DNA from: a virus | Taxonomy: Duplodnaviria > Caudoviricetes | Length of the DNA stretch: 61,169 nucleotides | Virus record (IMG/VR): IMGVR_UViG_3300020109_000001 | Span: 1-61,169 of that record | Reading direction: 5' to 3' (one strand) | Shown: positions 1 through 59,909 of the stretch, in pieces | Position numbering within the stretch: the stretch's first letter is position 1 | Layout: each line of letters starts with the position of its first letter | The notes under the pieces: model-generated | What the model saw: the letters and a program-made list of their open reading frames with translations, nothing else | What the model was told of the DNA's origin: nothing | Database searches by the model: none | Position numbers and translations under genes: made by a program

Positions 1-127
1 GCGACGGTTTCGGTAGCGGTTTCGACGGCGGGTTTTTTAGCGTTAGCGGTCATTTTATCTTATCCTATCTCTAAGGGTTAGCGGTTAGCGTTTATCGCTT
101 CCGTATAATCCTTATACCGCGCTTAAC
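1..127. repeat. Terminal 127-bp direct overlap, identical to 61043-61169 (circular assembly overlap)
   Basis: Exact identity seen by eye. 127 is a common assembler k-mer, and the overlap cuts through the 60748-61095 gene and its leader. Confidence 0.9.
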
Positions 128-139
128 TGGGGAAGTAAA
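111..139 (-). promoter_or_regulatory. sigma70-like promoter TTTACT-N17-TATAAG for the 115-aa gene (60748-61095, across the junction)
   Basis: AGTAAA at 134-139 and CTTATA at 111-116 on +; 17-bp spacer; same architecture repeated genome-wide. Confidence 0.8.
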
Positions 140-593
140 GCGGTTTTATACTTAATAAAAGTTAAGTTAGCGGTTAGCGGTTTAGCGTTATGTTATTACC
201 TATCTTGTGCGTCGGGGTGTGCGTCTGCGTGCATGCATCTGCTCTCGGGGAATCACGACACCATGACAGGATGATAACGTGTAAACGTCGCTGAACCATG
301 GTCCCTGCATCTCAGCATGCGGACATCGAAAACAGGGATCGTGACACCGGCTGAGCGCTCAGGCTGGAGTGGTCCATGGTCGCCAGTGCACGTGCCATGA
401 CATCATGATAGGATGACATATTGGCTCGGTGCATGGACCCTGGAGGAAGCACCTGCACAGGGGATTGTGTGTCTGGGATTGTGCGTGTGGGATAGTGGTT
501 GCTCGAGAGTGGTGGGTTGCTCTTGATGCAAGGATCGGTGCGAGGATCGCTTGACCCAAGCCCCAAGGACCGTCACCCATAAAACACCCAGAA

Positions 594-746
594 CATTACC
601 TCAACTAATAATCAAGGACCGTGGATCATTACCCAATTTAATAATCACAAGGCCCATGAACCAAGGTCCCTGAGAGACGACCACCGAATCATCATTACCC
701 CAACTAATAATCAGGCTACCTGGTACATTAGGCCAGCTAATAATCA
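594..746 (+). repeat. Four 21-bp imperfect direct repeats, CATTAcnnCAncTAATAATCA
   Basis: Copies at 594-614, 627-647, 693-713 and 726-746. Confidence 0.8.
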
Positions 747-927
747 GAAAATACTGGAATCAGTACCCAACCTAAATACAAACGACGCTCAAATTTGATA
801 GACGTAAAAGGCGACAGCCAATAAGACTGTCCCAGTCCCCATTCATCTCCCCAAAGAACCTCCCCCGCATATCCAGAGACGATGGTGCGGGGGACGGTGG
901 TGGAAGGTTGGCACGTGTTGTTGTGGT

Positions 928-1113
928 CTATTCGTTTACCTGCAACCATGTTACAAAGCATTCAGCATAGACCTGCTCCGTCATTTCTTGAACACGAGAA
1001 AAGGCAAAGACTTCAGCTTCTCGATACGGATATCGAACACATGCATCCCTGTATGCTTGTTCTTCGTACACGTCTTCTTGTGCGACTTGGTAAGTCATGG
1101 TCTCACTCCTCAA
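928..1113 (-). CDS. hypothetical early protein (61 aa)
   Basis: Start/stop overlap with 1110-1394; GAGGAG upstream. Confidence 0.55.
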   Translation of the reverse strand: MRSETMTYQVAQEDVYEEQAYRDACVRYPYREAEVFAFSRVQEMTEQVYAECFVTWLQVNE

Positions 1114-1394
1114 TCATATGTTACGCCAGGGCAGGGACAAGTACCCCAAATCATATTCTGATCGTGGTACTCCCTGTAGAGTGGTTCGATGGAATAGTGC
1201 TCTGGCTTGAACATCACTGACTCGCTCAGATGGAGCAGTTCCACCAGTTGCTGGGCTCTGTGGATGAGTTTGACCTCATCCTCTGTAATGGTGTCGTAGT
1301 ACTCCGGATGTCCGTCATCGTCGTGCGAATCCGGGATTTGGTACCCCTCCAGGATGTCGTGAATCTGGTGGAGTTCTCGTTGGATGCGGTTCAT
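1110..1394 (-). CDS. hypothetical early protein (94 aa)
   Basis: Tightly packed in the leftward early operon. Confidence 0.65.
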   Translation of the reverse strand: MNRIQRELHQIHDILEGYQIPDSHDDDGHPEYYDTITEDEVKLIHRAQQLVELLHLSESVMFKPEHYSIEPLYREYHDQNMIWGTCPCPGVTYD

Positions 1395-1406
1395 GGATCA
1401 CACGCC

Positions 1407-1673
1407 TCAGTACGGAACAAAGCCATAACGACGATAGATTGGTGCATCATTACCAATCCGAGCACGGATAGCTTTACGCAAGAGACGCATGCTTTTCACA
1501 CCTGCCACCTTACAGGCATGACGACGAGCCAAACGATACTCATTTCCAGAGACTTTGGCCAAAGCATAGCACTCCGACGGAGCACCCATCGCATAAATAT
1601 CATCGACGATGGCAGCGTCCCGATTATGGGGTTTCATCAAAATCGAGATTGCTTTTCCGAGATTCTGGGTCAT
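1407..1673 (-). CDS. hypothetical basic early protein (88 aa)
   Basis: SD AGGAGTAGGA and promoter directly upstream. Confidence 0.75.
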   Translation of the reverse strand: MTQNLGKAISILMKPHNRDAAIVDDIYAMGAPSECYALAKVSGNEYRLARRHACKVAGVKSMRLLRKAIRARIGNDAPIYRRYGFVPY

Positions 1674-1717
1674 TTTATCCTACTCCTATGCTAAAGCCTT
1701 TAGCGGCTTATAGTTAA

Positions 1718-1746
1718 ACTATACCCTATCAGGATAAGGCAGTAAA
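1718..1746 (-). promoter_or_regulatory. promoter TTTACT-N17-TATAGT
   Basis: AGTAAA at 1741-1746, ACTATA at 1718-1723. Confidence 0.8.
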
Positions 1747-1758
1747 TAGCCGATAAAA

Positions 1759-1926
1759 TTATTCAGCAATTCTTTCAGCTGCTTGTCGAGTTCGCCCAAC
1801 ACTCTCATTTGCTCTCTCAATCAATCGATCTGCTTCATGATCGAGTTGTGTATAGTGTAGTTGTGCCATCATGCTGTAGAGAAGTACAAACATGAAGAGA
1901 ACGATTGCGAACTGAGAGCGTGTCAT
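1759..1926 (-). CDS. small membrane protein (55 aa, MTRSQFAIVLFMFVLLYSMM...), not in the ORF track
   Basis: Hand translation; N-terminal hydrophobic helix; AAGGA upstream. Confidence 0.55.
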   Translation of the reverse strand: MTRSQFAIVLFMFVLLYSMMAQLHYTQLDHEADRLIERANESVGRTRQAAERIAE

Positions 1927-2091
1927 TCGAGAGAGTCCTTATGATCAGGGCGAATACAGAAGAGAGTAGGTGAAGAGACAGACTGCGACCATGCACAGGA
2001 TTACACAGATATACAAGACAACCACATCGTTAGATTTGTGACCCAAGTATATCGCAAAATCAGACATGCGAAAGCGAGAAAAGTGTCCATG

Positions 2092-2418
2092 TTACAGCCT
2101 CGTATACAGAGTGAATTTGATCTCTTCCAGCAATCCCAGAAGGAGGCGGGGAGGGAAGTTGGTCTTGTTGATGGAGTGCAGGATTTCCTCTCGGAGCATC
2201 TCAACAGGATTGATCTTGGTCTCTCCAAGTTTCCTGAAGTATTCCTGCTTGTGCTGAACTTCGGATAAGACTTTCCTCCCCGCTCCCTTCTGATCAAGTA
2301 TCTGCTCAGGCTCGAGATCCATGAACTGGACCATGCTGTCCACACCCATACGGGTGAGGACATTGCCTGTACGAACTGATGGTTCGATGGACTTTATGAA
2401 TTCTGACCAGCCGTGCAT
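2092..2418 (-). CDS. RNA polymerase alpha-CTD-like protein
   Basis: EPSVRTGNVLTRMGVDSMVQFMDLEPEQILDQKGAGRKVLSEV aligns to the alpha-CTD pattern ELSVRSxNCL...I..L...tE.ELL..pNLGkKSLxEI; start probably ATG 2418. Confidence 0.65.
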   Translation of the reverse strand: MHGWSEFIKSIEPSVRTGNVLTRMGVDSMVQFMDLEPEQILDQKGAGRKVLSEVQHKQEYFRKLGETKINPVEMLREEILHSINKTNFPPRLLLGLLEEIKFTLYTRL

Positions 2419-2747
2419 TGTTCTTTCTCCAGTTGTTCGATCATCCATTCGAGCAGTTCCCAGCGGAGTGCAGCATATGGACTGTTTTCACGGTCCCAGG
2501 AATACTGTCTATTCTGATCCTCATCGTCATTGGATTCAATACTTTGCCAGAAGCTACCAGGGATTGGATAACAGTTGGCTCCTGAATGTTTTGACCATCC
2601 TTTAGCGAACTCTTGGAACTCTTCTCTTAAATTACTGTAATCCATTTGATGGACACTGTCGATTACGTCACAAATCCCGAAACGAGACCAGTTCTTCTGA
2701 TCTTGCATCTTTGTGTGTACAGCTTTCAGTGCTTCCAATAGTGTCAT
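2394..2747 (-). CDS. hypothetical protein, paralog of 2744-3112
   Basis: Shared MTLL..LK..H..MQD.KNW..GIC and WDR.NSPYAALRWELLEWMI. Confidence 0.75.
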   Translation of the reverse strand: MTLLEALKAVHTKMQDQKNWSRFGICDVIDSVHQMDYSNLREEFQEFAKGWSKHSGANCYPIPGSFWQSIESNDDEDQNRQYSWDRENSPYAALRWELLEWMIEQLEKEQCTAGQNS

Positions 2748-3112
2748 TGTTGCTTCTCCAATTCAGCAATCATCCACTCAAGCAGTTCCCAGCGGAGTGC
2801 AGCATATGGACTGTTGACTCGATCCCACATTCGTGCCTTTTGATCTTCAGCAAGATTGAAATTGAGAGCCCAGATATCATATGCCTCACAACCACCAGGA
2901 AGAGGGAAAGATGAGTGACCACTGAACTTTGGCCATGTGCAAAACAATTGATACATTCTTTCGCTGTAGCCAGGATCGTCCCACCATAAATCCACGAGTT
3001 CTTCTGTGTTCAGTTGTTCACGAATAGTGACGCAAATTCCACTTTTCGTCCAGTTTTTCTTGTCTTGCATTCTTTCGTGCAGTTGCTTCAGGAGATCCAA
3101 CAATGTCATCAC
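2744..3112 (-). CDS. hypothetical protein, paralog of 2394-2747
   Basis: Same motifs; 35-bp exact nucleotide repeat at 2452-2486 and 2781-2815. Confidence 0.75.
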   Translation of the reverse strand: MMTLLDLLKQLHERMQDKKNWTKSGICVTIREQLNTEELVDLWWDDPGYSERMYQLFCTWPKFSGHSSFPLPGGCEAYDIWALNFNLAEDQKARMWDRVNSPYAALRWELLEWMIAELEKQQ

Positions 3113-3336
3113 AACCCCTCCACCAGATGCAGCTCACCGGCCGCATTGCGTACATATTTCTGCCCCAGACCAAGGCCCAAGGACCCAATCGCCCAGATAT
3201 CGTAAGAAGTCTGTGTCATCATGGCACAAGGACCAGCCTTCGTCTTCGCATCATACACGATTTTACCCTCTCTATGGGTAAACATGACTCCAAAATCGTC
3301 ATGCGTCTCCTTCTCTGCACTCAGATAACGAGTCAT
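3109..3336 (-). CDS. hypothetical phage protein (75 aa; YDAKT..GP.AMM..GLGLGQKY)
   Basis: GAGGAGG SD; overlap with the downstream gene. Confidence 0.7.
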   Translation of the reverse strand: MTRYLSAEKETHDDFGVMFTHREGKIVYDAKTKAGPCAMMTQTSYDIWAIGSLGLGLGQKYVRNAAGELHLVEGL

Positions 3337-3851: not shown

Positions 3852-3897
3852 AACTGTTACCTTTATCCTAAGTTAGCGGGCCGCGCCCTACTTATAT

Positions 3898-3926
3898 AGG
3901 TTAGCGCGGCCTTAGCGTGAAGTAAA
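3898..3926 (-). promoter_or_regulatory. promoter TTTACT-N17-TAACCT
   Basis: AGTAAA at 3921-3926, AGGTTA at 3898-3903, in a TG/CA-poor island. Confidence 0.65.
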
Positions 3927-4829: not shown

Positions 4830-4858
4830 CTTATATACGCCCGCGCGGGCGCAGTAAA
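4830..4858 (-). promoter_or_regulatory. promoter TTTACT-N17-TATAAG
   Basis: AGTAAA at 4853-4858, CTTATA at 4830-4835. Confidence 0.8.
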
Positions 4859-4962: not shown

Positions 4963-4991
4963 TTTACTGCAGTTTATACGTACCTTATACC
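4963..4991 (+). promoter_or_regulatory. putative divergent promoter TTTACT-N17-TATACC for the 5140-7578 operon
   Basis: TTTACT at 4963-4968; imperfect -10; TG/CA-poor island at about 4972-5040. Confidence 0.5.
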
Positions 4992-7994: not shown

Positions 7995-8023
7995 ATTATA
8001 GCTGGTCAGGCGGCTGAAGTAAA
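7995..8023 (-). promoter_or_regulatory. promoter TTTACT-N17-TATAAT
   Basis: AGTAAA at 8018-8023, ATTATA at 7995-8000; overlaps the 3' end of 8006-8524. Confidence 0.7.
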
Positions 8024-10758: not shown

Positions 10759-10787
10759 ACTATAGGCCGGCAGCGGCTTGCGGTAAA
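10759..10787 (-). promoter_or_regulatory. promoter TTTACC-N17-TATAGT
   Basis: GGTAAA at 10782-10787, ACTATA at 10759-10764. Confidence 0.8.
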
Positions 10788-11246: not shown

Positions 11247-11536
11247 TGCTTCATCGCCTTTACAATATTGTCGATCGCACCTTCCCGTTCCTTCCGGACA
11301 GATTGGTACAAGAAGACCGGATCAGTTCTGTAGAACAGTGCTGCCAAGACATAGAAGGTGTTCCGTGCAACCTGGTCCTCAGCATTCACTTCAAGACGAT
11401 CAAACGCAAGCATCAAAACATCATCGACATTCAGACCCTCGTTGTAGAGAGCATCAACATCCTCGTCTTGACGCTGAATCCGATCGTCGGGTTTCTTTCC
11501 TTCTTCAGCACACATGCGGCACATTTCATCCTCCAA
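11243..11536 (-). CDS. hypothetical protein (about 92-97 aa)
   Basis: GGAGG SD; ATGA overlap. Confidence 0.6.
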   Translation of the reverse strand: MEDEMCRMCAEEGKKPDDRIQRQDEDVDALYNEGLNVDDVLMLAFDRLEVNAEDQVARNTFYVLAALFYRTDPVFLYQSVRKEREGAIDNIVKAMKH

Positions 11537-11552
11537 TTGTTTAAGGCGTTTT

Positions 11553-11635
11553 TCAGGGCGCTGGCGGGCGTTAGGCGGTTAGGCTATACGGGTAGCGGCC
11601 CCCGTTGAGGGACCGCTGGTAGGGCTGCTCAGGGG
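11553..11635 (+). repeat. composite dispersed element, copy 2
   Basis: TCAG 11553, GGCGGGCG 11563, GCTATACGGGTAGC 11583, GCTGCTCAG 11624. Confidence 0.7.
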
Positions 11636-14067: not shown

Positions 14068-14096
14068 ACTATAACCCTACAGCGGGTTGGTGACTA
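14068..14096 (-). promoter_or_regulatory. promoter TAGTCA-N17-TATAGT
   Basis: ACTATA at 14068-14073; the -35 overlaps the HNH stop codon; TG/CA-poor island at 14028-14090. Confidence 0.55.
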
Positions 14097-17267: not shown

Positions 17268-17803
17268 TTCTTTCCTCCAAGTTGACGTGCCATTTGAGCA
17301 CGATCGTTAAAGTAATCTGTATTGTATTGAGAGAACATATCCATATTCTTATTCATCAGTACTCGAACAGCTGGAATAATCTTCTCAGCGATTTGCCAAC
17401 CATAGTGAACATTTCCGAGACGCATCTCTTCTATTGCGAACTCAAGCATTTCAATCAGATCAGCGCATTTGATCTTCACAGCTTCTTCAGTTGAGACAAG
17501 TCCGTCATGGTACTTACCAGCGGAAACTTCAAATGCTGTTTCAGAATCAATCCGTTCTGCAACCTGCGCCAGATCAGGATTCGCTCGCTTCGCATCGAAA
17601 GGAATGTCACCTGTACCAAGTTCGCCAGCATCATGGTACACGATTGCCACAGTGACATTCGAAGGTGGTGATCCGAACATCTCGATATAGATACGCAGAA
17701 CGTTGAACGTGTGATGACCCACGTTCTGCTTCTGAACAGTTGGCCAGATATGGTAACGCTGGACGTCACCAATATGTCGAGAACTCAATCCGTTACTCAG
17801 CAT
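17264..17803 (-). CDS. HD-domain nucleotidase (YfbR-like)
   Basis: V.RYH...QNVGHH...YHDAGE..TGDIP...KCAD.IEM. Confidence 0.85.
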   Translation of the reverse strand: MLSNGLSSRHIGDVQRYHIWPTVQKQNVGHHTFNVLRIYIEMFGSPPSNVTVAIVYHDAGELGTGDIPFDAKRANPDLAQVAERIDSETAFEVSAGKYHDGLVSTEEAVKIKCADLIEMLEFAIEEMRLGNVHYGWQIAEKIIPAVRVLMNKNMDMFSQYNTDYFNDRAQMARQLGGKK

Positions 17804-18797
17804 GTTTATTGGTCCACTTTTGGAAACGACGATTGATCCACAGCTGCATAGCTAGTTGCCAGTCTGTGGCTTCGATACAACCCAACCACTCGTAACACTG
17901 TTCCCAGTTCTTCTCCTTGAAAGCCAGATGCGCCATCCAAGCAGGACGAGCCGTCAGATAGAACCACATGTTCTCATAATCGTGAGTATTCACTGGATCC
18001 ATCATGAACTTGTGGAGATCCTGGTCCCACTTGTCAGGATTGGACATAATCGACCAAGGTTCGACTCGACCAGTTCGATAGAAGTTCGTGTCAATCATGC
18101 CATGAATCGCAAACTTGTTTAGCACATCTGTGTAGGCGTGCCAGTTGTTACTCATCTGGTAGAACTTACCTACAGGTACACCAATTCTGCCAGCGAGGTA
18201 TTCCTGTAAGAACGTCATGTGTACCGCGTTGGCACCGTAAGCGCCATAAATCACGTCATTGGATCGAACACAGACGGTGATGTCCAAAGCACCATTCACG
18301 ATACGTGGATAGATGTGTGTGTTGCAGGGGACATCTTTCCACTGCTTCGCACCCAGGTTCTGGAAGTCGACGTACATATCCCACATTGAGATAACGACAC
18401 GTCGATCTTTCGGATCAGCTTTCAGTCTTTCAACTGTTCGATCCAGCTGGTCATAACCCGTCCAATCTCTCCAACGACGACCATAAGCACCATGAATATT
18501 TCCACCCTCTTCACCAAATCGACTTGAAAAGTCTCCCACAAATCGATCCAGCCAGCGACCATCCCGATCACCGTGCAACATCCACAAACACTCGAACAGA
18601 TGGAAGAACGGATTGGCGTCCCTATTCTCATCGAAGAGAACGCGCTCCATGGGTCGATCCGTGACAGTCATAACCGGGAAGGGGACAACCTTCACCTGAC
18701 CAGCCCGCGAATCCTCAATCACTCCATCTCGCTGGACGAAATGGAGTGCCTGAGGATAAAGATCGTTGATGTTGCGCCCACTCAGTACATATGTCAT
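17793..18797 (-). CDS. thymidylate synthase homolog, probable dUMP hydroxymethylase
   Basis: DANPFFH, DRR.VISMWD, DVPCN (catalytic Cys), RSND..YGAYGAN (Asn consistent with dUMP specificity), NNWHAY; modification-cluster context. Confidence 0.85.
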   Translation of the reverse strand: MTYVLSGRNINDLYPQALHFVQRDGVIEDSRAGQVKVVPFPVMTVTDRPMERVLFDENRDANPFFHLFECLWMLHGDRDGRWLDRFVGDFSSRFGEEGGNIHGAYGRRWRDWTGYDQLDRTVERLKADPKDRRVVISMWDMYVDFQNLGAKQWKDVPCNTHIYPRIVNGALDITVCVRSNDVIYGAYGANAVHMTFLQEYLAGRIGVPVGKFYQMSNNWHAYTDVLNKFAIHGMIDTNFYRTGRVEPWSIMSNPDKWDQDLHKFMMDPVNTHDYENMWFYLTARPAWMAHLAFKEKNWEQCYEWLGCIEATDWQLAMQLWINRRFQKWTNKHAE

Positions 18798-19612
18798 GCT
18801 CGGTCTCCTATCTCATACGCCTTCTTCCACTGAACGGTGGCCTCGACACGAGTGCCGAACTCACCACCGCCCTTGTTCTCCTTGACACGTGCGGACACGT
18901 AACCAGGATGCAAATCCATCAGCTTGTACACTGCTTGCTCTTGTAGGTCATGTGTGCGCCAGATCGAGCAACCACCCTCAGTGTTCGTTGCCTTCTGGCC
19001 CGTGGCCCAATAGACAGTTACACAAGTGAGACGCTTCCTGCGGAGGAGTTGTAAGGTGATGTCGAAATCCTCCATAACCGGAACCCGCCCATGTTCCAGT
19101 GAGAGAAACTCATCGACCGAGAAGGCGTTGGCACGCATCCCTCGATAGTGAGGTTGTACTGCTTCGCGACCTCCGAGGCCCAAGCGATTGTTTCCTTCTC
19201 GGGCACCCAAGGAGACTTGCGCATATCCAGAATCCAACAAGCTAATGACGTCATTGTACATGTCGACTGTTTCGTCATCTTCCGTGTACCTCAACTGCCA
19301 ATTGTCGGGTGCTCGACGGACCAGGAAGTTTACATCATCGTCGACCATCAGGATCTTCTTGTATCCACGCTTTCGCGCTTCAACGGCCATCTGCCGGCGC
19401 TTCTCTCCAATGTTCCAATAACCCAACATCATAACGTCATTAACGTGCTCAAGAATCTTCGGATCACGGTAACGCCCACCATCTTCAACGTGCGTGAACA
19501 TAAACGTGTGTTCACGAAGCTTCGGTGACAGACATTTGAGAGTGTCCCGGAATCCTAGCACCTGCTTGTGACGACCCCGAGAAGGAATCGCGATCATCAT
19601 ATCATTCGACAT
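18794..19612 (-). CDS. GT-A fold DNA-base glycosyltransferase (TAGT/GREB1/JGT-like)
   Basis: IAIPSRGR, IG.KR, MVDDD, MEDFD.TLQLL, EGGCS..RT; GAGGAG SD before ATG 19612. Confidence 0.8.
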   Translation of the reverse strand: MSNDMMIAIPSRGRHKQVLGFRDTLKCLSPKLREHTFMFTHVEDGGRYRDPKILEHVNDVMMLGYWNIGEKRRQMAVEARKRGYKKILMVDDDVNFLVRRAPDNWQLRYTEDDETVDMYNDVISLLDSGYAQVSLGAREGNNRLGLGGREAVQPHYRGMRANAFSVDEFLSLEHGRVPVMEDFDITLQLLRRKRLTCVTVYWATGQKATNTEGGCSIWRTHDLQEQAVYKLMDLHPGYVSARVKENKGGGEFGTRVEATVQWKKAYEIGDRA

Positions 19613-20074: not shown

Positions 20075-20103
20075 ATTATACCCTGTCAAAAGGGCTGGCG
20101 CTA
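20075..20103 (-). promoter_or_regulatory. promoter TAGCGC-N17-TATAAT for the modification and polymerase operon
   Basis: ATTATA at 20075-20080, GCGCTA at 20098-20103; same -35 as at 28140. Confidence 0.65.
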
Positions 20104-20334: not shown

Positions 20335-20583
20335 TTAGATTTGTTTCTCGTCACCGTCAAGATATCGCTTGAAGTCGATCGTCCAAGGATATTCCTTCTG
20401 CATGTTCTTGAACTGTTCAGCAGTACCAACCCATGCATAGTTGCGGTCAGTTGTTTCGCCAAGGCAACTGTAATTGACGTATGTCCTGCTCTCAGCATTC
20501 CAGGCGATGTATTTCCTACCACCTGGAAATCGAGACTGAACAGCCCATTCGTTGTATTCCCTTTTCTTCTTCAGAGGTTTCAT
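20335..20583 (-). CDS. hypothetical protein (82 aa)
   Basis: ATGA overlap with the kinase gene. Confidence 0.65.
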   Translation of the reverse strand: MKPLKKKREYNEWAVQSRFPGGRKYIAWNAESRTYVNYSCLGETTDRNYAWVGTAEQFKNMQKEYPWTIDFKRYLDGDEKQI

Positions 20584-21527
20584 CGATACGTTCCTCGTGG
20601 CCTTCCTTCACCATTGTTTGCTCGCTGGTACTTGTCGAACTCGCATAGCGAGTGCTCGATCTCTCGCATCTCTAATGGACGCTCGGGCCAAGGCCAATTT
20701 TCAGTTGGTCTCGACATAACTCGAAGATCAAACATTTCTTTATTCCACTCTTCCTTCTTCTGAGTGAAATTCAGCTTCCGACCATGAAGTCTGTTTAGAC
20801 CACGCATCGCACCGGGTCCAGCATTGGCCCAGGTCATGATATCGGGAGCACGCTCCAAGGCCCGAGTGAAGCGGAGGTCGGTCACAACCTCATAGGCCAT
20901 GAAATCACCCAGGTAGCTGAACTTGCGAAGCCAGTCCCAGGCGTCTTGGAGAGTGACCGTGCAATTTGTATCAAACATGATTTCTGCACCTCCTCTCCAA
21001 CTGACATTGTCGATGAGGACACAATCACGTTCTACATTGTGTCGCGTGTATCGAAGTGGGTACTTATCCCTCCAGAAATGCTCCAAGGCCCAACACACAC
21101 CGTGCAGTTTTGTCATTCCGCTCGGAGTCTTGATGATGTAGGCACCTGTGACGAAGGGACCATGAGGACCAATATGCTTGAGCAAAGCATCCTTGATGAT
21201 CTGCCCATCACCAGACTTTCGGAACTCTTCATATGGATTATCTCCAACATAAAGATCATCGGTGTTGAACAATGCTTCACCACTCACAGTCCGATTGAAC
21301 CAACGGAACAGAACCGTCGCCAGAATGATGTCTTCTCGATTCCGGAGCGGATCACGAACATTCTCTCGGAACCACACAGTCGTGCGATCATCTTCACGAA
21401 ACACGTTCGTGAATTTGTAATAGTCGAGAATCTCATCCTTGGTCCAAGGACGAGGCTCCCCGGCCTGCTTCTTCAGGAAGATGCGGTAGCGTTCCTGGAT
21501 GAAATTGAAGAAGGGTGTGGGATCCAT
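20580..21527 (-). CDS. 5-hydroxymethyl-dU DNA kinase (aGPT-Pplase1 family)
   Basis: F...ER..I..KK.AG.P.PWT.D.IL..YKFTNVFREDDR, FRWFN, FMAYE.VTDL, GPGA.RGL, REIEHSLCEFDKY.R. Confidence 0.9.
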   Translation of the reverse strand: MDPTPFFNFIQERYRIFLKKQAGEPRPWTKDEILDYYKFTNVFREDDRTTVWFRENVRDPLRNREDIILATVLFRWFNRTVSGEALFNTDDLYVGDNPYEEFRKSGDGQIIKDALLKHIGPHGPFVTGAYIIKTPSGMTKLHGVCWALEHFWRDKYPLRYTRHNVERDCVLIDNVSWRGGAEIMFDTNCTVTLQDAWDWLRKFSYLGDFMAYEVVTDLRFTRALERAPDIMTWANAGPGAMRGLNRLHGRKLNFTQKKEEWNKEMFDLRVMSRPTENWPWPERPLEMREIEHSLCEFDKYQRANNGEGRPRGTYR

Positions 21528-21945: not shown

Positions 21946-21974
21946 ATTATACCGCTTCAGCGGTCTGCCGTAAA
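21946..21974 (-). promoter_or_regulatory. promoter TTTACG-N17-TATAAT
   Basis: CGTAAA at 21969-21974, ATTATA at 21946-21951. Confidence 0.8.
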
Positions 21975-22860: not shown

Positions 22861-22889
22861 AATTTACCCCCGCATCAGGACGTTGTAAA
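22861..22889 (-). promoter_or_regulatory. promoter TTTACA-N17-TAAATT; predicted +1 coincides with ATG 22854 (leaderless)
   Basis: TGTAAA at 22884-22889, AATTTA at 22861-22866; no SD. Confidence 0.6.
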
Positions 22890-28116: not shown

Positions 28117-28145
28117 ACTATAACCCGGCAAACGCTCGGGCGCTA
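28117..28145 (-). promoter_or_regulatory. promoter TAGCGC-N17-TATAGT for the replication operon
   Basis: ACTATA at 28117-28122, GCGCTA at 28140-28145. Confidence 0.7.
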
Positions 28146-28506: not shown

Positions 28507-28535
28507 TTTTCTTCGGGCGTTTGTTAGGCTATACT
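28507..28535 (+). promoter_or_regulatory. promoter TTTTCT-N17-TATACT for the SNF2 helicase operon
   Basis: TTTTCT at 28507-28512, TATACT at 28530-28535. Confidence 0.65.
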
Positions 28536-55014: not shown

Positions 55015-56918
55015 GTCGCATCCTTTTTGATTGTCTCGAAGACTTCTGGACCAAGAACAATCTTACCAGTGTATGGCTCGATGTCGTCAAGATTCAGACC
55101 GTCAACAGACTTCGACAGAGAGATATGTGGCTTGTAGTCTGGGTAAGACGACGAAGCACCACGATCAATCATATCTTCGTGACGATACTTCAGTTGGTAG
55201 CTGTTGAACCGAAGAACGAGTGTCTCATCGTCAGGAGGACCAAAGATGTCGAGCATCCGAGCACCACCAGGACGAATCTCGAGGTTCCCGTTCCGCCAGT
55301 CACCCGCCCAGTCATCTTCCATACTCATCCAGTCAACAGGTGTCTCACTGTAGAGGATGGTAACATGCAAGTCGTCGGCTGGGAACAGGTCTTGGATTCC
55401 CTGCTTCTTGGCCCAATCGAGAATGGATTTCGCATTCACGACCTTGCGACTCACATAGAGAGGCATGGGACCTCTCTCGTCGTTGACTGCTTTCTTGCGG
55501 GATGCGGGGGGCGAGTTCTCGTTCGCAGCACCACCAGGCTTGGGTTCAGGCTTCAATGCTGCTTTGACAACATCGATAGCTTCACCAGGTTCATTCCGAA
55601 CCTTCTGATGCATCTCCCAAGCATCTTCAAGACCAGGCATGGCTTCGTGCTCGACGATGGTGTTAACGACAGCCGCACCCATCGAGTAGGGGTCGATCAT
55701 GCCGTTCTTGATCATCGTCTCGCCGACCTTCGCAGCATTCAGAGCAATCTCTGCACGCTCCTTCTCGGTCACCTGCCACAATGGGCGCCAGGTATAGAAG
55801 ATCTCTTTCGGACGACGACCCAGAGCGGAGCGGATCACCGCCTCGTCGTAGTTCTTCATCGCCGGAGTGATCTTATTATTCTGCATCGACTGAACACGAT
55901 CATAGTAATGGCGGATATCCGCCTCACCTGTTGCGTTCAGACCACCAGGGCTGGTTCCGAAGAGTCGAGTAACAGGAATGCTGCACGACCCAGAAACATA
56001 CTGGTAGAAGCGGTCGATGAGTTCAGGAAGAGAACCATAGGTCTGGCTCTTCTGTTGGTACTGTTCCAGTTCATCCAGGATGAGCGTACCGTTGACGCTT
56101 TTCGACATGCTCGCCATGGCGAATCGCTTCAGAAGGTCAGCCTCATATCCCGGCTGCTGAGCCAGCTTGGTCATCAGACCCTTGACGTTGATTACGTCAA
56201 TCTTCGCTTCAAAGATCAGGTTGGCGATTGCCGTGATGGCTCCGTCAACATGTTTAGTGGCGTTCAACACAACCTGTAGAACCGAACGTGACCATTGCGT
56301 GTTCACGCGCGGCATATCAAGCGGTCGTTCATCACCCTTGAAGATCATCAGACGAGTGTGGTGAATCTTGACGTCACCGCCATCAGCTTTCTTGTACAGA
56401 TAGTACACAGGCTTGCCGAAGTTCTCGCTGTCCAGGTTCTCATCGAGATCACCCTGAGTCAGTTGAAGCTGACTGAAGACGATACAACGACGAAGATCGC
56501 CTTTCCCGATGGTCTTCGCATCAAATGGGGTGTCGGGCTTTTGGCCACGGATTGGGAAATAGACTGCAGCGCCTCCGAGCAGGCGTCCATTCTTCAACCC
56601 AGTCTCTACTGCTTGTAGAACACCCGTGCGAGATTCTTCGGCTTCGATGGCGGTGATCTGGTCGGGAGGAGCGTTCCAGTTCCGCCAGCGACGAGTCGCA
56701 TCTTCAGCGATGGTATCTACGATTCGGCGTGGGAGGAACGCCGTTTCATAGGCAGCAAGCAACTCAGCATCAGTGTAAGTGCGTGACATGTACACGCCAG
56801 CTGATGCTTTGTCTCTACCACCACCAAAGCCTGCGACTACATTGCCGTAGCCATCCCACATTTCAAGTACTTGACCGTCCGCTGTGACACGCGCACGACC
56901 ACGAGGCTTCTCTGTCAT
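55011..56918 (-). CDS. portal protein (DUF1073) fused to a C-terminal Acb1-like 2H phosphodiesterase
   Basis: IVD..AEDATR.W, IH.TR...F.G, IPVTRLFG.SP.GLNATGE.D...YYD; C-terminal LHVTILYS...YKPHISL...LGPEVF. Confidence 0.85.
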   Translation of the reverse strand: MTEKPRGRARVTADGQVLEMWDGYGNVVAGFGGGRDKASAGVYMSRTYTDAELLAAYETAFLPRRIVDTIAEDATRRWRNWNAPPDQITAIEAEESRTGVLQAVETGLKNGRLLGGAAVYFPIRGQKPDTPFDAKTIGKGDLRRCIVFSQLQLTQGDLDENLDSENFGKPVYYLYKKADGGDVKIHHTRLMIFKGDERPLDMPRVNTQWSRSVLQVVLNATKHVDGAITAIANLIFEAKIDVINVKGLMTKLAQQPGYEADLLKRFAMASMSKSVNGTLILDELEQYQQKSQTYGSLPELIDRFYQYVSGSCSIPVTRLFGTSPGGLNATGEADIRHYYDRVQSMQNNKITPAMKNYDEAVIRSALGRRPKEIFYTWRPLWQVTEKERAEIALNAAKVGETMIKNGMIDPYSMGAAVVNTIVEHEAMPGLEDAWEMHQKVRNEPGEAIDVVKAALKPEPKPGGAANENSPPASRKKAVNDERGPMPLYVSRKVVNAKSILDWAKKQGIQDLFPADDLHVTILYSETPVDWMSMEDDWAGDWRNGNLEIRPGGARMLDIFGPPDDETLVLRFNSYQLKYRHEDMIDRGASSSYPDYKPHISLSKSVDGLNLDDIEPYTGKIVLGPEVFETIKKDAT

Positions 56919-58369
56919 AGCGCATACTCCAGCACTTCGGTCTCCAGCAAGCGAGCAAATGCCCGCGAGCAGGCATCGATTTGGTCTTTGAATCTCCCTG
57001 CTGGGAAGGTTTCAGCTTCAGACAGGAACGCATTGTTCCAATCACCTTGTACGAGGAACACATTCCCCGCAGCAGCCTGGGCAGCAAGTGGTGCCGCCCG
57101 TGTGGCTTTGTCTCCAGATTCGGTCGAGAACGTGTAATCGTATCCCAACAGCTTACCGACCAGATATGTGACCTGGAACTTCCCCGACTGTCCAGGGTCC
57201 TGGGGCAAGGAGCCAGGAACCAAATAACCGTCTTGTTTAGCTGTTGCGATCAAAGTCGTTTCGACCATCAGCGGATCGCCGCGAAACCGCTTCATGTCGC
57301 CAATGTAAATCTTTCCGGCAGGACTTATCCCAACCAATGCTCCAGCAGTAAAGGCTGCTGTTGCACTGTCCGTGGCCGCCAAGTCCCATCCACGAGCCCA
57401 TCGAGTCCCCTTGGGGGCAAAATCGACGACTTTGAACCAGTCTCGCTTAAACAACCCGCCGCCACGGGGCGAGGGCCGCTGCTGGAATTGGCCCGCAACT
57501 GCGTACGGACCCGAGATCGACATCATGACTTTCTTGTCACGTTCGACTACTTCTCGTGAGAATCGTTCCGGGAAGAGGAGTTCATCGACCTCAGTACGTG
57601 GATCAACAAAACCAATGCTAGTATAGCACTTGCGATCAGGCTCAAACTCCATAGGAAGGTTAAGATGTTCGTAACCAAGACCTTCCTCCAGAATAATACC
57701 AGCAGGATCACGCTCATGGAGACGCTGCATAATCATTACAATGGCATCCCGCTCCGGATCGTTGAGGCGGGAGGGCACGGCTTCAGTGAACGTCTCAGCC
57801 ACCTGCTGAAGGATGACTGGTGAACGAGCATCGTCGACGGAGAGAGGGTCGTCGATCCCGACTCGATGTCCCCGAGAACCCGTCAGAGAGGTGAAAGCCA
57901 TAGCTTCCCGGAATCCCCGCTCGCTGTTCTCGAACTTCTGCTTCGAGTCACTTCCTGAGTCAATCGTGAACTGGGAACCCCAGCGAGACTGGTACCAATC
58001 AGACTTGATCAGGTTCCGAGTCTTCTGGGAATCACGAAGAGCCAGGTCTTGTTTGTGTGAGGTCCCAAGATACCGGACCCACGGCATTTGTTTGGGACCC
58101 CACTCCCACGCGGTCCAGAAGACCCCTGTGAGAAGCGATTTCATCATGCCCGGAGGGACGGTGATGAGAAGTCGTTTCAAATGACCGTCGGTCACGGCCT
58201 CGAGATGATCACAGATTGCGTCAAGAGCCCAACCCCATTTGAGTTCGGCTCCTGGTTCGAGAACATGCCAACCACCCTTGGTGAATCCCGCGAGCGTGGC
58301 GAACTCTTTGCGTTCTTTGCGCCGACGAAGAACCTCGGCCGCAGCCTGGGCTCTAGTTACCATCGTCAT
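56915..58369 (-). CDS. terL: terminase large subunit
   Basis: RLLITVPPGMMKS, IDDP, MQRLHERD, QFQQRP.P.GG, WDLA, DQIDA. Confidence 0.95.
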   Translation of the reverse strand: MTMVTRAQAAAEVLRRRKERKEFATLAGFTKGGWHVLEPGAELKWGWALDAICDHLEAVTDGHLKRLLITVPPGMMKSLLTGVFWTAWEWGPKQMPWVRYLGTSHKQDLALRDSQKTRNLIKSDWYQSRWGSQFTIDSGSDSKQKFENSERGFREAMAFTSLTGSRGHRVGIDDPLSVDDARSPVILQQVAETFTEAVPSRLNDPERDAIVMIMQRLHERDPAGIILEEGLGYEHLNLPMEFEPDRKCYTSIGFVDPRTEVDELLFPERFSREVVERDKKVMMSISGPYAVAGQFQQRPSPRGGGLFKRDWFKVVDFAPKGTRWARGWDLAATDSATAAFTAGALVGISPAGKIYIGDMKRFRGDPLMVETTLIATAKQDGYLVPGSLPQDPGQSGKFQVTYLVGKLLGYDYTFSTESGDKATRAAPLAAQAAAGNVFLVQGDWNNAFLSEAETFPAGRFKDQIDACSRAFARLLETEVLEYAL

Positions 58370-58841
58370 CTCCTGGAGGGAGAATGTCGTAGTCAGCTTC
58401 CGTCAGCAAGATCTCCTCGAGTTCGTCATCGGTCATTTCCTCGAGGCTCTTGTCCTCCGTTTTGAGGCTGATCTCCTGTTTCGGAGCGCCCAAGCCACGG
58501 GTCTCTGCATCCCGCAGCATCGTGTTGACATCCGAGTTGATGAACTTGAGGATCTTCTGGATGGCCTCAGCGCGTTCCTCTTCGGTGGCGTCCGGATTAA
58601 CAACAACGAGTTGTTGGGTTGCAATCTGGGATTCCAATGTTTCAAGTAGAGTGGCACGAATACGAAGAGCAGTCTTTGCATTTATTCGTCCTTGGGCTGC
58701 GTCACGGTTGCTCATCCCGAATAAGTTGGGATTCCCGGTCTGCCCTTTGACGAATCGAGTAGCCATCTGTCGAGGGCTGAGAATCATAGACTGTGCCGAA
58801 GCAGGTGCCTCCCGCTCGGCTTGCTCTTTGGTACGAGGCAT
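58353..58841 (-). CDS. terS: terminase small subunit
   Basis: TRF.KGQTGNP; LEEMTDDELE; directly upstream of terL. Confidence 0.75.
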   Translation of the reverse strand: MPRTKEQAEREAPASAQSMILSPRQMATRFVKGQTGNPNLFGMSNRDAAQGRINAKTALRIRATLLETLESQIATQQLVVVNPDATEEERAEAIQKILKFINSDVNTMLRDAETRGLGAPKQEISLKTEDKSLEEMTDDELEEILLTEADYDILPPGDDDGN

Positions 58842-58872
58842 GTGGGTCCATCCTCATGGTTGTGAATAGCTT

Positions 58873-58922
58873 CGCCCGAGGGCTCCAGTCAACCCTCGGG
58901 CGTAGTGACCCTCTAAGGGTCA
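58873..58922 (-). promoter_or_regulatory. tandem hairpins in the late-operon leader (candidate antitermination element)
   Basis: CGCCCGAGGG-N10-CCCTCGGGCG at 58873-58902 and TGACCCT-N3-AGGGTCA at 58906-58922; no U tract. Confidence 0.55.
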
Positions 58923-59021
58923 GGCGCAGCACTGGTAGGCCCAAAGCCGCTAGTCCAGGAGGTCACTTCCACAATCTTCTGGCGAGGAGAACTGGGCAGA
59001 CCGTACAACCGAACTATGGTC

Positions 59022-59050
59022 AGAATAACCCGGCCCGATAATGAAGTAAA
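59022..59050 (-). promoter_or_regulatory. late-operon promoter TTTACT-N17-TATTCT
   Basis: AGTAAA at 59045-59050, AGAATA at 59022-59027. Confidence 0.7.
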
Positions 59051-59074
59051 GTATTATTTTTTGGACGACGATAA

Positions 59075-59563
59075 TTATTTTATGGGTGTGATGTCAGTGA
59101 GTAGACATTTGATCGGATGGTCACAATCATCAGGCCAGACAATGGCTACATGACCCTTACATTCTTGGACCGTGCCCTTCAATCCATTCAATGTCTCATC
59201 CGTAAACACAACCCGTGCCAACCGTGGAAGAGGCCTCCCCATCACCATCGACCGTCTCTCCAGTTCCTGAGCATAATAGACCTGCTCTTGGGGGACTTTG
59301 ACTGGCATCCCGGTGGCGGGGGAGCGGAGGAAGTGGTGGGTCCATCGCTCAGCGAGTTGTGCGAGTCGGTGGAGTGCGTCCGGATGCAGGAAGGCGTATC
59401 CTGGGTACATTAAAGTGCGGATCGCTTTGGGACGTCTTTTTCGTCCTGCTCGCGTATATGTGGTCATGCGCGGGCGGATTAGGTGTTGTGGGGGGAGGTT
59501 CTCTTCAATCGCGGTCAAATTGGTGTTTGAGGAACGAATTACGTGGAAATAGTCGAAATTCAT
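59075..59563 (-). CDS. NusG/RfaH-like transcription antitermination factor
   Basis: P......R..RK......LMYPGYAFL (NGN), FLR....P..VP.EQV, RV.F....L.GL.GTV (KOW). Confidence 0.7.
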   Translation of the reverse strand: MNFDYFHVIRSSNTNLTAIEENLPPQHLIRPRMTTYTRAGRKRRPKAIRTLMYPGYAFLHPDALHRLAQLAERWTHHFLRSPATGMPVKVPQEQVYYAQELERRSMVMGRPLPRLARVVFTDETLNGLKGTVQECKGHVAIVWPDDCDHPIKCLLTDITPIK

Positions 59564-59838
59564 CGCTTTAGACCCTTTTCACGAAGGAATTCGACACATT
59601 CGGGGAATGTTGTGGGCCAATTCTTGGCTTTCCTGTGTTTATTACTCAGATACATGTACTCGTGACCGAGATGCAAGGCAACTTCGTATTGGAGCACGTT
59701 TATACTGAGATCCTCTAAAGGTCGGGAAGATTGGAACGTTAGTGAGGCGTCAATCTTCTTCTCGATTTTGGCGCGGTCCTTGGCCTCTTCTTCGGCGGCG
59801 ATGTCGAGTGGGTGACGCTCGTGGTCGTATAGTTTCAT
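59560..59838 (-). CDS. hypothetical protein (92 aa)
   Basis: ATGA overlap; promoter upstream. Confidence 0.65.
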   Translation of the reverse strand: MKLYDHERHPLDIAAEEEAKDRAKIEKKIDASLTFQSSRPLEDLSINVLQYEVALHLGHEYMYLSNKHRKAKNWPTTFPECVEFLREKGLKR

Positions 59839-59880
59839 GGTCCGTGGGTCCTGGATCAGAAAGTTAAAGCCATATTGGAT

Positions 59881-59909
59881 ATTATACCGCCTTATTACTT
59901 TTTAGTAAA
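59881..59909 (-). promoter_or_regulatory. promoter TTTACT-N17-TATAAT
   Basis: AGTAAA at 59904-59909, ATTATA at 59881-59886. Confidence 0.8.

Follow-up and report, generated by a model that had tools for sequence, protein, structure and literature searches.

Why does a phage carry promoter-like sites whose -35 boxes read TTTAC or TAG in place of TTGACA, and is the reason to be sought in the bases that it modifies? The window, the whole stretch of 61,169 nt analysed here, is the complete 61-kb genome of a lake-water siphophage. The original prediction was that its promoters had evolved to avoid modifiable T at sigma contact points, and that interpretation as a whole is partly supported by what follows. 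Each of the 14 predicted 29-nt spans carries the letters given for it and has exactly 17 nt between its boxes; 13 are on the minus strand and one (28507-28535) is on the plus strand, and none starts with TTG. The -10 boxes had been called TATAAT/TATAGT/TATAAG-like, which holds at 11 of the 14 (TATAAT, TATAGT, TATAAG or TATACT) and fails at 3898-3926 (TAACCT), 59022-59050 (TATTCT) and 22861-22889 (TAAATT), the weak members of the set. A scoring matrix was made from 12 sites, whose own scores (15.2-28.4) are high by construction; the best score per shuffle averaged 12.8 and reached at most 16.7 in 30 shuffles. Ranked after the 12 source sites are 22889-22861 (14.3), 59050-59022 (14.0) and 3926-3898 (11.6, at noise level). 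The sites, whose promoter activity is predicted from their letters, are:

111..139, minus strand: putative promoter P1, TTTACT, 17 nt, TATAAG; score 22.4; within island 71-211; it would drive gene 61095-60748 across the circular junction
1718..1746, minus strand: putative promoter, TTTACT, 17 nt, TATAGT, TG at -20/-19; score 25.5; island 1690-1751; next gene start 45 nt downstream
3898..3926, minus strand: weak candidate, TTTACT, 17 nt, TAACCT; score 11.6, within noise; island 3843-3940; a TATAAG box begins 1 nt past the TAACCT hexamer, 24 nt from TTTACT
4830..4858, minus strand: putative promoter, TTTACT, 17 nt, TATAAG; score 18.3; island 4781-4879; divergent from 4963
4963..4991, plus strand: putative promoter, an additional site, TTTACT, 17 nt, TATACC; score 15.2; island 4950-5043; faces the plus-strand gene cluster 5140-7578
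7995..8023, minus strand: best-scoring putative promoter, TTTACT, 17 nt, TATAAT; score 28.4
10759..10787, minus strand: putative promoter, TTTACC, 17 nt, TATAGT, TG at -20/-19; score 26.7; island 10727-10839, which covers 49 nt of the upstream ORF
14068..14096, minus strand: putative promoter, TAGTCA at the -35 position, TATAGT; score 21.6
20075..20103, minus strand: putative promoter, TAGCGC at the -35 position, TATAAT; score 21.5; precedes the operon with the glycosyltransferase and hydroxymethylase genes
21946..21974, minus strand: putative promoter, TTTACG, 17 nt, TATAAT; score 27.4; upstream of the gp55-like gene
22861..22889, minus strand: weak candidate, TTTACA, 17 nt, TAAATT; score 14.3 (0.17 such matches per shuffled genome)
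28117..28145, minus strand: putative promoter, TAGCGC at the -35 position, TATAGT; score 21.8; island 28110-28180; divergent from 28507
28507..28535, plus strand: putative promoter, TTTTCT, 17 nt, TATACT; score 25.8; SNF2 helicase gene 31 nt downstream
59022..59050, minus strand: weak candidate, TTTACT, 17 nt, TATTCT; score 14.0; 181 nt upstream of the gene that opens the packaging and structural block
59881..59909, minus strand: putative promoter, TTTACT, 17 nt, TATAAT; score 19.3; island 59860-59940

The motif set is far from random. TTTAC-N18-TATA occurs eight times in the whole window against 0.07 expected, a count reached in none of 100 shuffles, and seven of the eight matches are predicted sites, the other being 4963-4991 (+). 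TTGAC-N18-TATA has no match in the window (0.22 expected), in keeping with the claim that TTG-type boxes are missing from the set, and when pentamers 17-19 nt upstream of TATA are ranked without bias, the motif discovery that had been proposed as a check, TTTAC comes first (9 against 0.1 expected). Placement and orientation are as promoters require: the top 14 matrix matches, 12 of which are the source of the matrix, are essentially intergenic (coding overlap of at most 18 nt), and 12 of the 14 have a gene 7-181 nt downstream. The other two are 139-111, which faces gene 61095-60748 over the circular junction, and 8023-7995, which faces non-coding DNA, a well-folding 85-nt stretch ending in a terminator. 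The structural block contains none of the sites, and a strong terminator (22007-21982) lies immediately before the site at 21974-21946.

These counts bear on what kind of element the sites may be. That they are chance matches, or a repeat of some other kind, strikes us as very improbable; a generic TTGACA/TATAAT scan of 1-40000 and 41170-61169 does find no excess (48 against about 52 in shuffles), but the eight matches, their gene-facing intergenic positions, the terminator directly before one of them and the same architecture in T4 early promoters and in relatives all argue against it. Another proposal is that many sites are middle promoters, not read until a phage-encoded factor re-tools the host polymerase, whether by sigma appropriation or as a sigma-like protein; the C at -28, the TAG-type boxes and the TG at -20/-19 would then be signals for that factor rather than -35 variants. 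Such positions are indeed conserved: among the 12 strong sites C at -28 occurs in 10, TG at -20/-19 in 8 and G at -14 in 9, with T at -15 in none, and TTTACTG is read at three sites. The architecture recurs in relatives, with the same C and TG positions in L123 and L124 (the TG at 3 promoter-like sites), and the counterpart of 14068..14096 in L129 and L133 reads TAGTCC, 17 nt, TATACT; TG-bearing sites mostly stand at the head of replication and nucleotide-metabolism operons. Against a separate class, TTTAC and the -20 TG occur together in 5 of the 8 sites, and a scan of 37 different proteins from the 88 called genes, few of them small early proteins, turned up no member of a sigma, anti-sigma or RNA polymerase family. 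We regard this proposal as improbable.

The surroundings of the sites obey a rule of their own. In cores from -62 to +18 of the 15 sites, TG/CA stands at 0.51 of local expectation (z -7.6), so the predicted avoidance is real, and it is wider than had been stated, with TC/GA at 0.58 (z -6.6); AC/GT (0.89) and AG/CT (1.06) stay near expectation. The depletion persists when the two hexamers are excluded (TG/CA 0.58, TC/GA 0.69), and the other intergenic DNA (4,224 nt) lacks it (1.16 and 1.10). TG and CA counts are balanced in the cores (36/38), as are TC and GA (42/42), which points to the duplex, not RNA, as the level concerned. Islands poor in both TG/CA and TC/GA number 18, against 0 in 100 shuffled genomes, and of 45 dinucleotide-class pairs only this one yields islands, the next best giving 2. 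The claim that the sites lie in such islands holds for the set and less so site by site, as only 9 of the 15 overlap an individually significant one. If a modifiable T is one with G or C after it, or one paired with an A preceded by G or C, it is least frequent in the -35 core, at 2 of 60 positions, where the sites were chosen by their hexamers, and is also rare (6 of 72 positions) from -18 to -13, a region outside the selection criteria. Avoidance at sigma contacts is supported in this way, but it is not confined to them: 5' leaders, a whole gene and a second motif that is no promoter are depleted too. It had been described as strong rather than absolute, which is so, and the TG at -20/-19 is even conserved. 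The upstream gene end said to be TG-free is just that, with a TG/CA-free run (10780-10821) entering ORF 10791-11246. Island elements beyond the promoters are:

60656..61093, continuing to 211 over the junction, minus strand: largest island, TG/CA ratio 0.19, containing CGCTAAC heptamers on the same strand, the recoded gene 61095-60748 (115 aa) and the terminator of that gene (60739-60718)
11535..11625, minus strand: copy of motif B, the second island family
7754-7845, 31117-31281, 50918-50995 and 60382-60480: further copies of motif B

Gene 61095-60748 has 2.7 TG/CA per 100 nt, against 13.7 in the paralogous segment in 22099-22854, and uses GTG at 0 of 10, CTG or TTG at 0 of 5 and NCA codons at 1 of 36 opportunities; it has been recoded at synonymous sites, by selection at the DNA level.

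The phage appears to encode a pathway that replaces thymine by a modified base, with an HD nucleotidase among its modification genes and the following:

17793..18797, minus strand: thymidylate-synthase-like enzyme, probably a dUMP hydroxymethylase (Pfam E 4e-21; 42% identity to M6 gp58), with an Asn that aligns with the base-reading Asn of thymidylate synthase
18794..19612, minus strand: TAGT-like DNA glycosyltransferase (Pfam PF20691, E 7e-16; 103 homologues)
20580..21527, minus strand: homologue of M6 ORF055 (gp55) (Pfam HMUDK_hel, helical domain only; 35% identity, E 2e-48)

Searches of the window for a P-loop 5-hmdU kinase and an aGPT-Pplase2 transferase found neither. In M6, ViI and phiW-14 restriction-resistant sites share TG or TC, from which Flodman et al. 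2019 (PMC6449724) inferred a context for hypermodified T, credited to a P-loop 5-hmdU DNA kinase; within the available portion of that paper, no phage context for T hypermodification other than TG and TC is on record, and the effect of modification on promoters 'remains to be studied'.

Our leading reading, held tentatively and at somewhat less than an even chance, is that the islands poor in T before G or C, which surround T4-like early and middle promoters, were caused by avoidance of a modification context; we consider it the best reading because the published context of thymidine hypermodification in M6, ViI and phiW-14 is likewise a T with G or C after it, as far as the accessible text of PMC6449724 goes. 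On this reading the siphophage is lytic and the sites serve as its early and middle promoters, which host RNA polymerase would read with its housekeeping sigma. They resemble T4 early promoters in their -35 TTTAC(T), spacer of 17 nt and -10 TATA(A/G)T; G stands at -14, but the T that would make an extended -10 is missing. Most of the sites, other cis-elements and one whole transcription unit lie in some 18 short islands that have lost T followed by G or C on both strands. We infer that the phage most likely hypermodifies its 5-hydroxymethyluracil in just this dinucleotide context, probably by glycosylation, and that the link from context to islands is causal: kept free of bulky adducts, the islands may let sigma and other DNA-binding proteins read virion DNA.

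It is also possible, if rather unlikely, that the promoters are real, that TTTAC is simply the strong -35 preferred by the lineage or its hosts, and that the islands have nothing to do with base modification, stemming instead from cis-element grammar (CGCTAAC, GGGTAGCG, TATA words), DNA shape or nuclease avoidance. T4 modifies its DNA on C, not T, and yet GTTTAC-type TTTAC-N18-TATA (17-nt spacer) occurs 10 times in T4 1-50000 against 1.0 expected (TTGAC-N18-TATA 2 against 1.1), so TTTAC needs no TG avoidance and the claim that it is a product of such avoidance is not supported as stated. We take these T4 sites to be its early promoters, in line with a review (PMC2988021). Comparison of the -35 over relatives also went against the claim: TTTAC is kept without strong islands in L118 (17-26 TS/SA dinucleotides, T before G or C and the complement, against 26.5 expected) and in L123 and L124 (15-16 against 25-26), and high-GC loci of the clade are enriched in TTTAC (8 against 0.5 expected) at sites that are not TS-poor. 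TS-poor islands number 0 in the first 50 kb of phiW-14 and in the whole of M6, whose two large intergenic regions hold just two simple-repeat stretches free of TG/CA; the missing P-loop kinase and the density of repeated words in islands (CGCTAAC 16 against 3.3 expected) point the same way. The T4 GTTTAC sites, the relatives, the conserved -20 TG and the island-free M6 and phiW-14 (first 50 kb) leave avoidance unproven. But a preferred -35 does not account for depletion outside the hexamers, over four unrelated element types and a synonymously recoded gene, in exactly one class of the 45 pairs, which matches the modification context published in PMC6449724 (as excerpted), nor for the 0 islands in 111 loci (931 kb) of unrelated viral DNA; in the clade sharing the glycosyltransferase module, 10 of 80 loci have them. 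The letters would fit modification of T before G/C or of T before A/T, and T and its paired A are likewise inseparable. Polarity might be reversed, with T before A/T (for example TA) modified and the islands the most densely modified DNA, flagging promoters and operon boundaries much as base J flags transcription starts and stops. TA is enriched 1.5 to 2.4 times in islands and depleted in genes (0.47), every island T is in TA or TT context by construction, and the encoded glycosyltransferase would, like the one in base J synthesis, have a hydroxymethylated base as its substrate. TA is just as depleted in M6 (0.48), however, so this is not special to our phage; sigma would have to tolerate or require TATAAT and TTTACT boxes in which each T carries a bulky adduct, and TG and TC are the sole phage contexts reported in the excerpts of PMC6449724. 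We give this reversal little credence.

Several known systems come close to this one. Early promoters of T4, served by host sigma-70, share the -35 GTTTAC(A/T), the 17-nt spacer, the -10 TATAAT or TATAGT and a position upstream of early genes in a phage with modified DNA. They differ in the modified base, C, and in the TG before the -10 (extended -10) at most T4 sites listed, where T at -15 is found in 0 of 12 sites here; the comparison with T4 covers the promoter motif. Base J, or glucosyl-hydroxymethyluracil, occurs in kinetoplastids where transcription starts and stops; the feature in common with our phage would be a glycosylated 5-hmU placed in relation to transcription units. It differs in being eukaryotic, in being made by thymine hydroxylases on DNA and in lying at regulatory regions, which in our phage would be kept clear of the marks. 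This comparison bears solely on the reversed polarity.

With M6, ViI and phiW-14 our phage shares, on the accessible parts of the literature, hydroxymethylase-like starting chemistry and the class of T, before G or C, that is removed from its islands; those phages have a P-loop kinase where ours has a TAGT-like glycosyltransferase, and M6 and phiW-14 (first 50 kb) are without TS-poor islands. Pairings of a ThyS homologue with a GT-A-like glycosyltransferase are common in metagenomic phages (bioRxiv 10.1101/2023.12.21.572611), and the thymidylate-synthase homologue adjoins such a glycosyltransferase here too; in the portion of that preprint available, the glycosyltransferase's role in motif specificity is left open, and promoters or context-free islands are not mentioned. 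A precedent for a modified base in a promoter element altering its use comes from T4 middle promoters, where, according to excerpts of PMC2988021, GATT MotA boxes are 'silenced' by modified C opposite G and P46 performs better on modified DNA. In T4 the promoters have to work on DNA that is modified throughout, whereas here the modifiable context is apparently excluded, and the islands may be how this phage keeps its control sites readable.

The new and more interesting fact about this phage is that short islands of its DNA exclude T before G or C (TG and TC, with their complements CA and GA), an exclusion that is specific, strong and reaches into a recoded gene. The islands lie in a complete assembly from lake-water metagenomes, a single contig of 61,169 nt. 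Positions 1-76 are identical to 61094-61169, leaving a unique length of 61,093 nt, and this end identity indicates a circularly closed phage genome; the genome being circular or circularly permuted, its identical ends are where the assembly overlaps itself, and position 1 is crossed by contigs from other runs. Our own ORF model called 88 genes, most of them on the minus strand, and family scans recovered structural and lysis families (terminase, portal, major head protein, a 2,101-aa tape measure, tail proteins and lysin) together with replication families (family-A DNA polymerase, UvrD-type helicase, AEP primase, SNF2 helicase and exonuclease). The tape-measure gene contains six tandem repeats of 147 nt (49 codons) at 43145-43954. 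No tRNA gene and no Rfam family was found anywhere in the window, and no near-identical phage or close relative was found in the phage collection. All 10 runs listed for 1-10000 are lake-water metagenome DNA, with no RNA run among them, and four DNA runs compared with 1-20000 gave identical low-depth contigs with one difference (7235 G>T), and carry no population signal on island conservation.

The original prediction was of 14 candidate 29-nt promoters with TTTACN-like or TAG-type -35 boxes in place of TTGACA, and all 14 spans read as it described them. The set is real in a statistical and an anatomical sense. TTTAC-N18-TATA occurs 8 times in the window against 0.07 expected, including a new plus-strand site at 4963-4991; TTGAC-N18-TATA occurs 0 times in the window; and in a full scan of pentamers 17-19 nt upstream of TATA, TTTAC ranks first (9 vs 0.1). 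A generic TTGACA/TATAAT scan of 1-40000 and 41170-61169 returned 48 matches vs ~52 in shuffles; with no generic excess, what the phage carries is this specific variant, and promoter-like words in general are not in surplus. The consensus of the 12 strong sites is TTTACT (T at -35) and TATA(A/G)T at -10, with a spacer of exactly 17 nt. TTTACT shares four of six positions with TTGACA and the set is best classed, from its motifs, as a T4-early-like variant of predicted housekeeping-sigma promoters. T-12, A-11, T-10 and A-9 are found in all 12 strong sites and T-7 in nine, at sites chosen by this box; C is found at -28 in 10 of the 12, and G at -33 in three, all with TAG-type boxes. Avoidance of TG is not total, as T-20 and G-19 are jointly conserved in 8/12. 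The extended -10 TGn is absent (T at -15 in 0/12, G at -14 in 9/12), and no TTTAC site was flagged for a TG before the -10.

With a matrix built from the 12 strong sites, a genome scan adds only three candidates: 22889-22861 and 59050-59022 are marginal, and 3926-3898 scores at the level of noise. The 14 best matches are essentially intergenic, overlapping coding sequence by at most 18 nt, and 12 of them have a called gene start 7-181 nt downstream on the agreeing strand. The promoter at 139-111 (minus) faces gene 61095-60748 over the circular junction, ~110 nt away by coordinate count, a strong terminator (22007-21982) directly precedes the promoter at 21974, and the structural block at 31-58 kb is free of these sites. 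The best-scoring site, 8023-7995, faces no gene and instead an 85-nt non-coding stretch, 7904-7988 (minus), with a predicted fold (-32.4 kcal/mol, z -4.2) of three hairpins that closes with an intrinsic terminator; on this fold, and without an Rfam match, the stretch is a candidate small RNA.

We measured depletion from -62 to +18 at 15 sites (the 14 spans and 4963-4991), as a ratio to local mononucleotide expectation.

Dinucleotide ratios at the 15 promoter sites
TG/CA: ratio 0.51, z -7.6
TC/GA: ratio 0.58, z -6.6
AC/GT: ratio 0.89, z -1.8
AG/CT: ratio 1.06, z 0.9
TA: ratio 1.49, z 6.6
CG: ratio 1.41, z 4.0
GC: ratio 1.47, z 4.7

The poverty in TG/CA that had been predicted is thus present around the promoters, and it is part of something wider than was claimed, taking in TC/GA, a composite repeat (motif B) and the recoded gene. 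Depletion persists without the two hexamers (TG/CA 0.58, TC/GA 0.69), and near-equal strand counts (TG 36, CA 38; TC 42, GA 42) indicate that the duplex, not the transcript, is concerned. In long genes the trend is reversed (TG/CA 1.19, TC/GA 1.28, TA 0.47), and the remaining intergenic DNA (4,224 nt) resembles genes (TG/CA 1.16, TC/GA 1.10). When 60-nt windows poor in TG, TC, CA and GA (p < 1e-5) were merged, 18 islands resulted, 1,747 nt in total, and 0 were found in 100 shuffled genomes. Among 45 strand-symmetric dinucleotide class pairs, islands come from CA/TG plus GA/TC alone, the runner-up giving 2. TG/CA by itself, by gap length or in 100-nt windows, picks out the big island only, and the combined class is required. 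Nine of the 15 sites overlap an island, and the other islands hold motif B and the first transcription unit. Within the promoters, a modifiable T on either strand occupies 2/60 positions of the -35 core, 6/72 at -18 to -13 and 1/72 in the -10 (trivial for TATAAT) vs 0.30 genome-wide; because the sites were chosen by their hexamers, the density at -18 to -13 is the independent figure.

One island region spans the promoter at 139-111, the gene at 61095-60748 (minus) and a terminator at 60739-60718, a single-gene unit. The product is a 115-aa early protein with no Pfam or PHROG family and with Atlas matches to viral hypothetical proteins only. Its C-terminal 75 residues share 42% identity (79 aligned positions) with a segment of another gene product:

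22099-22854, minus strand, paralogous-segment gene encoding a 251-aa protein, in the replication block

TG/CA amounts to 2.7 per 100 nt in 61095-60748 vs 13.7 in the paralogous segment, and TC/GA to 8.0 vs 17.6. The codons of 61095-60748 include GTG in 0/10 cases, CTG or TTG in 0/5 and NCA in 1/36, with Gln and His absent, and of the two paralogues this gene alone is recoded to avoid TG/CA. By this comparison of dinucleotides and codons, the gene is evidently under DNA-level selection on dinucleotides within its coding sequence. The same unit is rich in the heptamer CGCTAAC, which is present in 16 copies vs 3.3 expected, 14 of them on the minus strand. Twelve copies, three of which fall in the 76-nt end repeat, cluster at the first promoter and gene in one orientation and resemble an array of protein-binding sites.

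60728-61132 and 166-179 (minus strand), and 3872-3906, CGCTAAC heptamers by repeat count

Motif B accounts for further islands and is distributed as follows.

7754-7845, 11535-11625, 31117-31281, 50918-50995 and 60382-60480, also 7678-7718, motif B, a composite repeat of ~90 nt

Its minus-strand sequence is CTGAGCAGC, ~30 nt, GCTACCCGTATAGCC, ~10 nt, CGCCCGCCT. Its sites lie between operons and at convergent gene ends and are strongly poor in T before G or C, and related GCTACTAGGGTAGCG islands are also present in two relatives (L123 and L124). Possible roles for motif B are as a late promoter or as a site bound by protein. A role as structured RNA was rejected, given a weak consensus fold (-5.6 kcal/mol) and no Rfam family. 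A 14-mer of it, used as a viral search probe, returned chance matches only, and the loci so matched were reused as an unrelated-virus control. Elsewhere, TG-rich non-coding DNA at 590-750 holds direct repeats of ~57 nt (594-650, 693-749) and several TGATTATTAG...GGTAATG-like units; these repeats are iteron-like, and a replication origin or a packaging site may lie there. Repeats (28230-28286 and 60018-60074, 70% identical) are also shared between 28150-28450 and 59990-60210, the largest two of the AT-rich intergenic regions, and both regions contain GATTTTACTATAGGG, which resembles a T7-type promoter core, although the 37 proteins scanned include no phage RNA polymerase.

A candidate source for such an exclusion is thymine modification, for which the window carries a group of genes.

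17264-17803, HD/YfbR-like nucleotidase by family scan, an adjacent modification gene
17793-18797, minus strand, thymidylate-synthase-like, dUMP hydroxymethylase homologue (Pfam Thymidylat_synt E 4e-21; 42% identical to M6 gp58)
18794-19612, minus strand, TAGT-family glycosyltransferase, with a 4-nt overlap with the thymidylate-synthase-like gene
20580-21527, minus strand, homologue of M6 ORF055 (35% identity; Pfam 'HMUDK_hel' domain)

The base-reading residue of thymidylate synthase is Asn for uracil and Asp for cytosine, and the protein of this phage keeps Asn at the aligned position. M6 gp54, a P-loop 5-hmdU DNA kinase, has no tblastn match in the window at E up to 1, and Walker A motifs are confined to the helicase, primase and tape measure, with no spare Walker A protein. 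M6 gp51 (aGPT-Pplase2 / amino acid:DNA transferase) likewise has no tblastn match in the window, and aligned pairwise it shows no significant similarity to the glycosyltransferase. Hydroxymethylase-like and glycosyltransferase genes, with neither the kinase nor gp51, make it most likely that T is replaced by 5-hydroxymethyluracil (5-hmU), which is then glycosylated.

The glycosyltransferase has 103 homologues, and with an alignment of 28 of them we fetched 80 viral loci from IMG/VR (L117-L196). All but one (79/80) also hold the thymidylate-synthase-like gene, most hold genes for PolA, UvrD and the homologue of the 20580-21527 product, and the module also includes a homologue of gene 16746-17267. 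By this gene content the loci belong to one clade of environmental phages, widespread and united by the module; their GC is ~36% or 52-65%. The closest relatives are contigs of 55-61 kb with glycosyltransferase identity of 72-79%, compared as proteins only. Searches with the 20580-21527 product gave no relatives, and PolA gave a 5.6-kb metagenome contig and a distant viral contig, neither informative. In the clade's 22 high-GC loci, TTTAC-N18-TATA occurs 8 times vs 0.5 expected and TTGAC-N18-TATA 2 vs 0.2, and CTTTA and TTTAC are the clade's top pentamers; 73 unrelated high-GC viral loci show the reverse (1 vs 3.9 and 19 vs 3.6). This opposition makes TTTAC a lineage trait; among the 58 low-GC loci there is no enrichment of either pattern.

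Comparing -35 boxes over relatives did not bear out the link to modification that had been proposed. The relatives' sites are barely poor in T before G or C, with 15-26 such dinucleotides (both strands) vs 25-26.5 expected in L118, L123 and L124, and islands are found in only 10/80 loci, at 0.8-1.6 per 100 kb vs ~29 per 100 kb here. The -20/-19 TG and the -28 C recur in L123 and L124, and the TAGTCA box at 14096 is TAGTCC in L129 and L133; the spacer and the TAG-type boxes are therefore informative in their own right. The first 50 kb of T4 contain TTTAC-N18-TATA 10 times vs 1.0 expected and TTGAC-N18-TATA 2 vs 1.1, and eight of the 10 lie on the gene strand as GTTTAC(A/T), 17 nt, TATAAT or TATAGT. 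In T4 the modified base is C, not T, and the TTTAC-type -35 functions with E. coli sigma-70. Since T4 uses TTTAC all the same, this is a strong -35 for a TTGACA-type sigma, and TG avoidance is not needed to account for it.

Why, then, does this genome exclude T before G or C? The proposal that its promoters evolved to avoid modifiable T at sigma contacts survives in part: such T is indeed rare in the -35 core and at -18 to -13, but T4, the relatives and the kept -20 TG argue against it. Restriction-resistant sites of M6, ViI and phiW-14 have T followed by G or C, a proposed hypermodification context, and the M6 kinase modifies TG (PMC6449724). That 2019 article, by Flodman et al., says that the effect of hypermodification on promoter strength 'remains to be studied', and by the account of Lee et al. 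2018 modification motifs were then not yet known (PMC5889632). Among literature listings and abstracts we found no report of promoters or islands depleted of modification context in modified-thymidine phages, a negative that does not prove absence. Of the single explanations for the islands, avoidance of the modification context is the best, and we hold it tentatively, at slightly less than an even chance. An absent T-15 with a kept G-14 fits it, as an extended -10 minus its T. Transcription starts, and the chemical identity and context of the modification, are what we infer from sequence.

It is also possible, if rather unlikely, that something unrelated to modification caused the islands. 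M6 and phiW-14 1-50000 have 0 islands, and a rule generalised to other modified-thymidine phages failed for both. The large intergenic regions of M6 do have TG/CA-free AT-rich stretches of 65-79 nt (3489-3553, 29629-29707), composed of simple repeats (GTAAGTTAA-like, TATC, GAA); they hint at the same avoidance idea, suggestively and weakly, because simple repeats trivially lack TG/CA. The polarity could be reversed, with the islands as the modified zones; we consider this improbable. From sequence alone, T in TG/TC and the A paired with it in CA/GA are indistinguishable. Similarly improbable is a promoter class dependent on a phage factor: no RNA polymerase or sigma family was found among 37 different proteins scanned, a sample that leaves out most small early proteins.

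Returning to avoidance of the modification context, we speculate that T before G or C would be where 5-hmU gets hypermodified, and that ~18 islands would be kept without that context such that host polymerase and DNA-binding proteins can read virion DNA. The bare islands would take in the promoters, all of the first transcription unit with its synonymously recoded gene, and a second conserved cis-element. One TG retained at -20 of replication-gene promoters would place a single adduct in the spacer, and this adduct might act as a switch between modified parental DNA and new, still unmodified DNA. That the phage writes a modification map into its sequence in this way, with bare islands and a -20 TG switch jointly, is doubtful, and we think it probably wrong as a whole.

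This genome is a clean case for the question of how host RNA polymerase reads phage DNA carrying bulky thymine groups. The dinucleotide rule predicts from sequence which T's would be modified and which 1.7 kb would be bare, and implies that control elements and one gene were recoded to remain so. If true, avoidance islands could reveal the modification contexts of uncultured phages, the same signal could locate regulatory DNA, and promoters engineered for modified-DNA phages would have to follow this grammar too. If the modification reading fails, the islands are an unexplained, highly specific compositional feature.

Among known systems, T4 early promoters have the same GTTTAC -35 and 17-nt spacer as the window, but their extended -10 TGn is absent here. 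The kinase pathway has been worked out for M6, ViI and phiW-14 (PMC8989533), and this phage shares the dUMP hydroxymethylase homologue and lacks the kinase and transferase, so it is not a member of that group. A preprint (bioRxiv 10.1101/2023.12.21.572611) reports that metagenomic phages commonly pair a thymidylate synthase with a GT-A glycosyltransferase, and this TAGT-like module, an adjoining gene pair that is conserved together, is present here.
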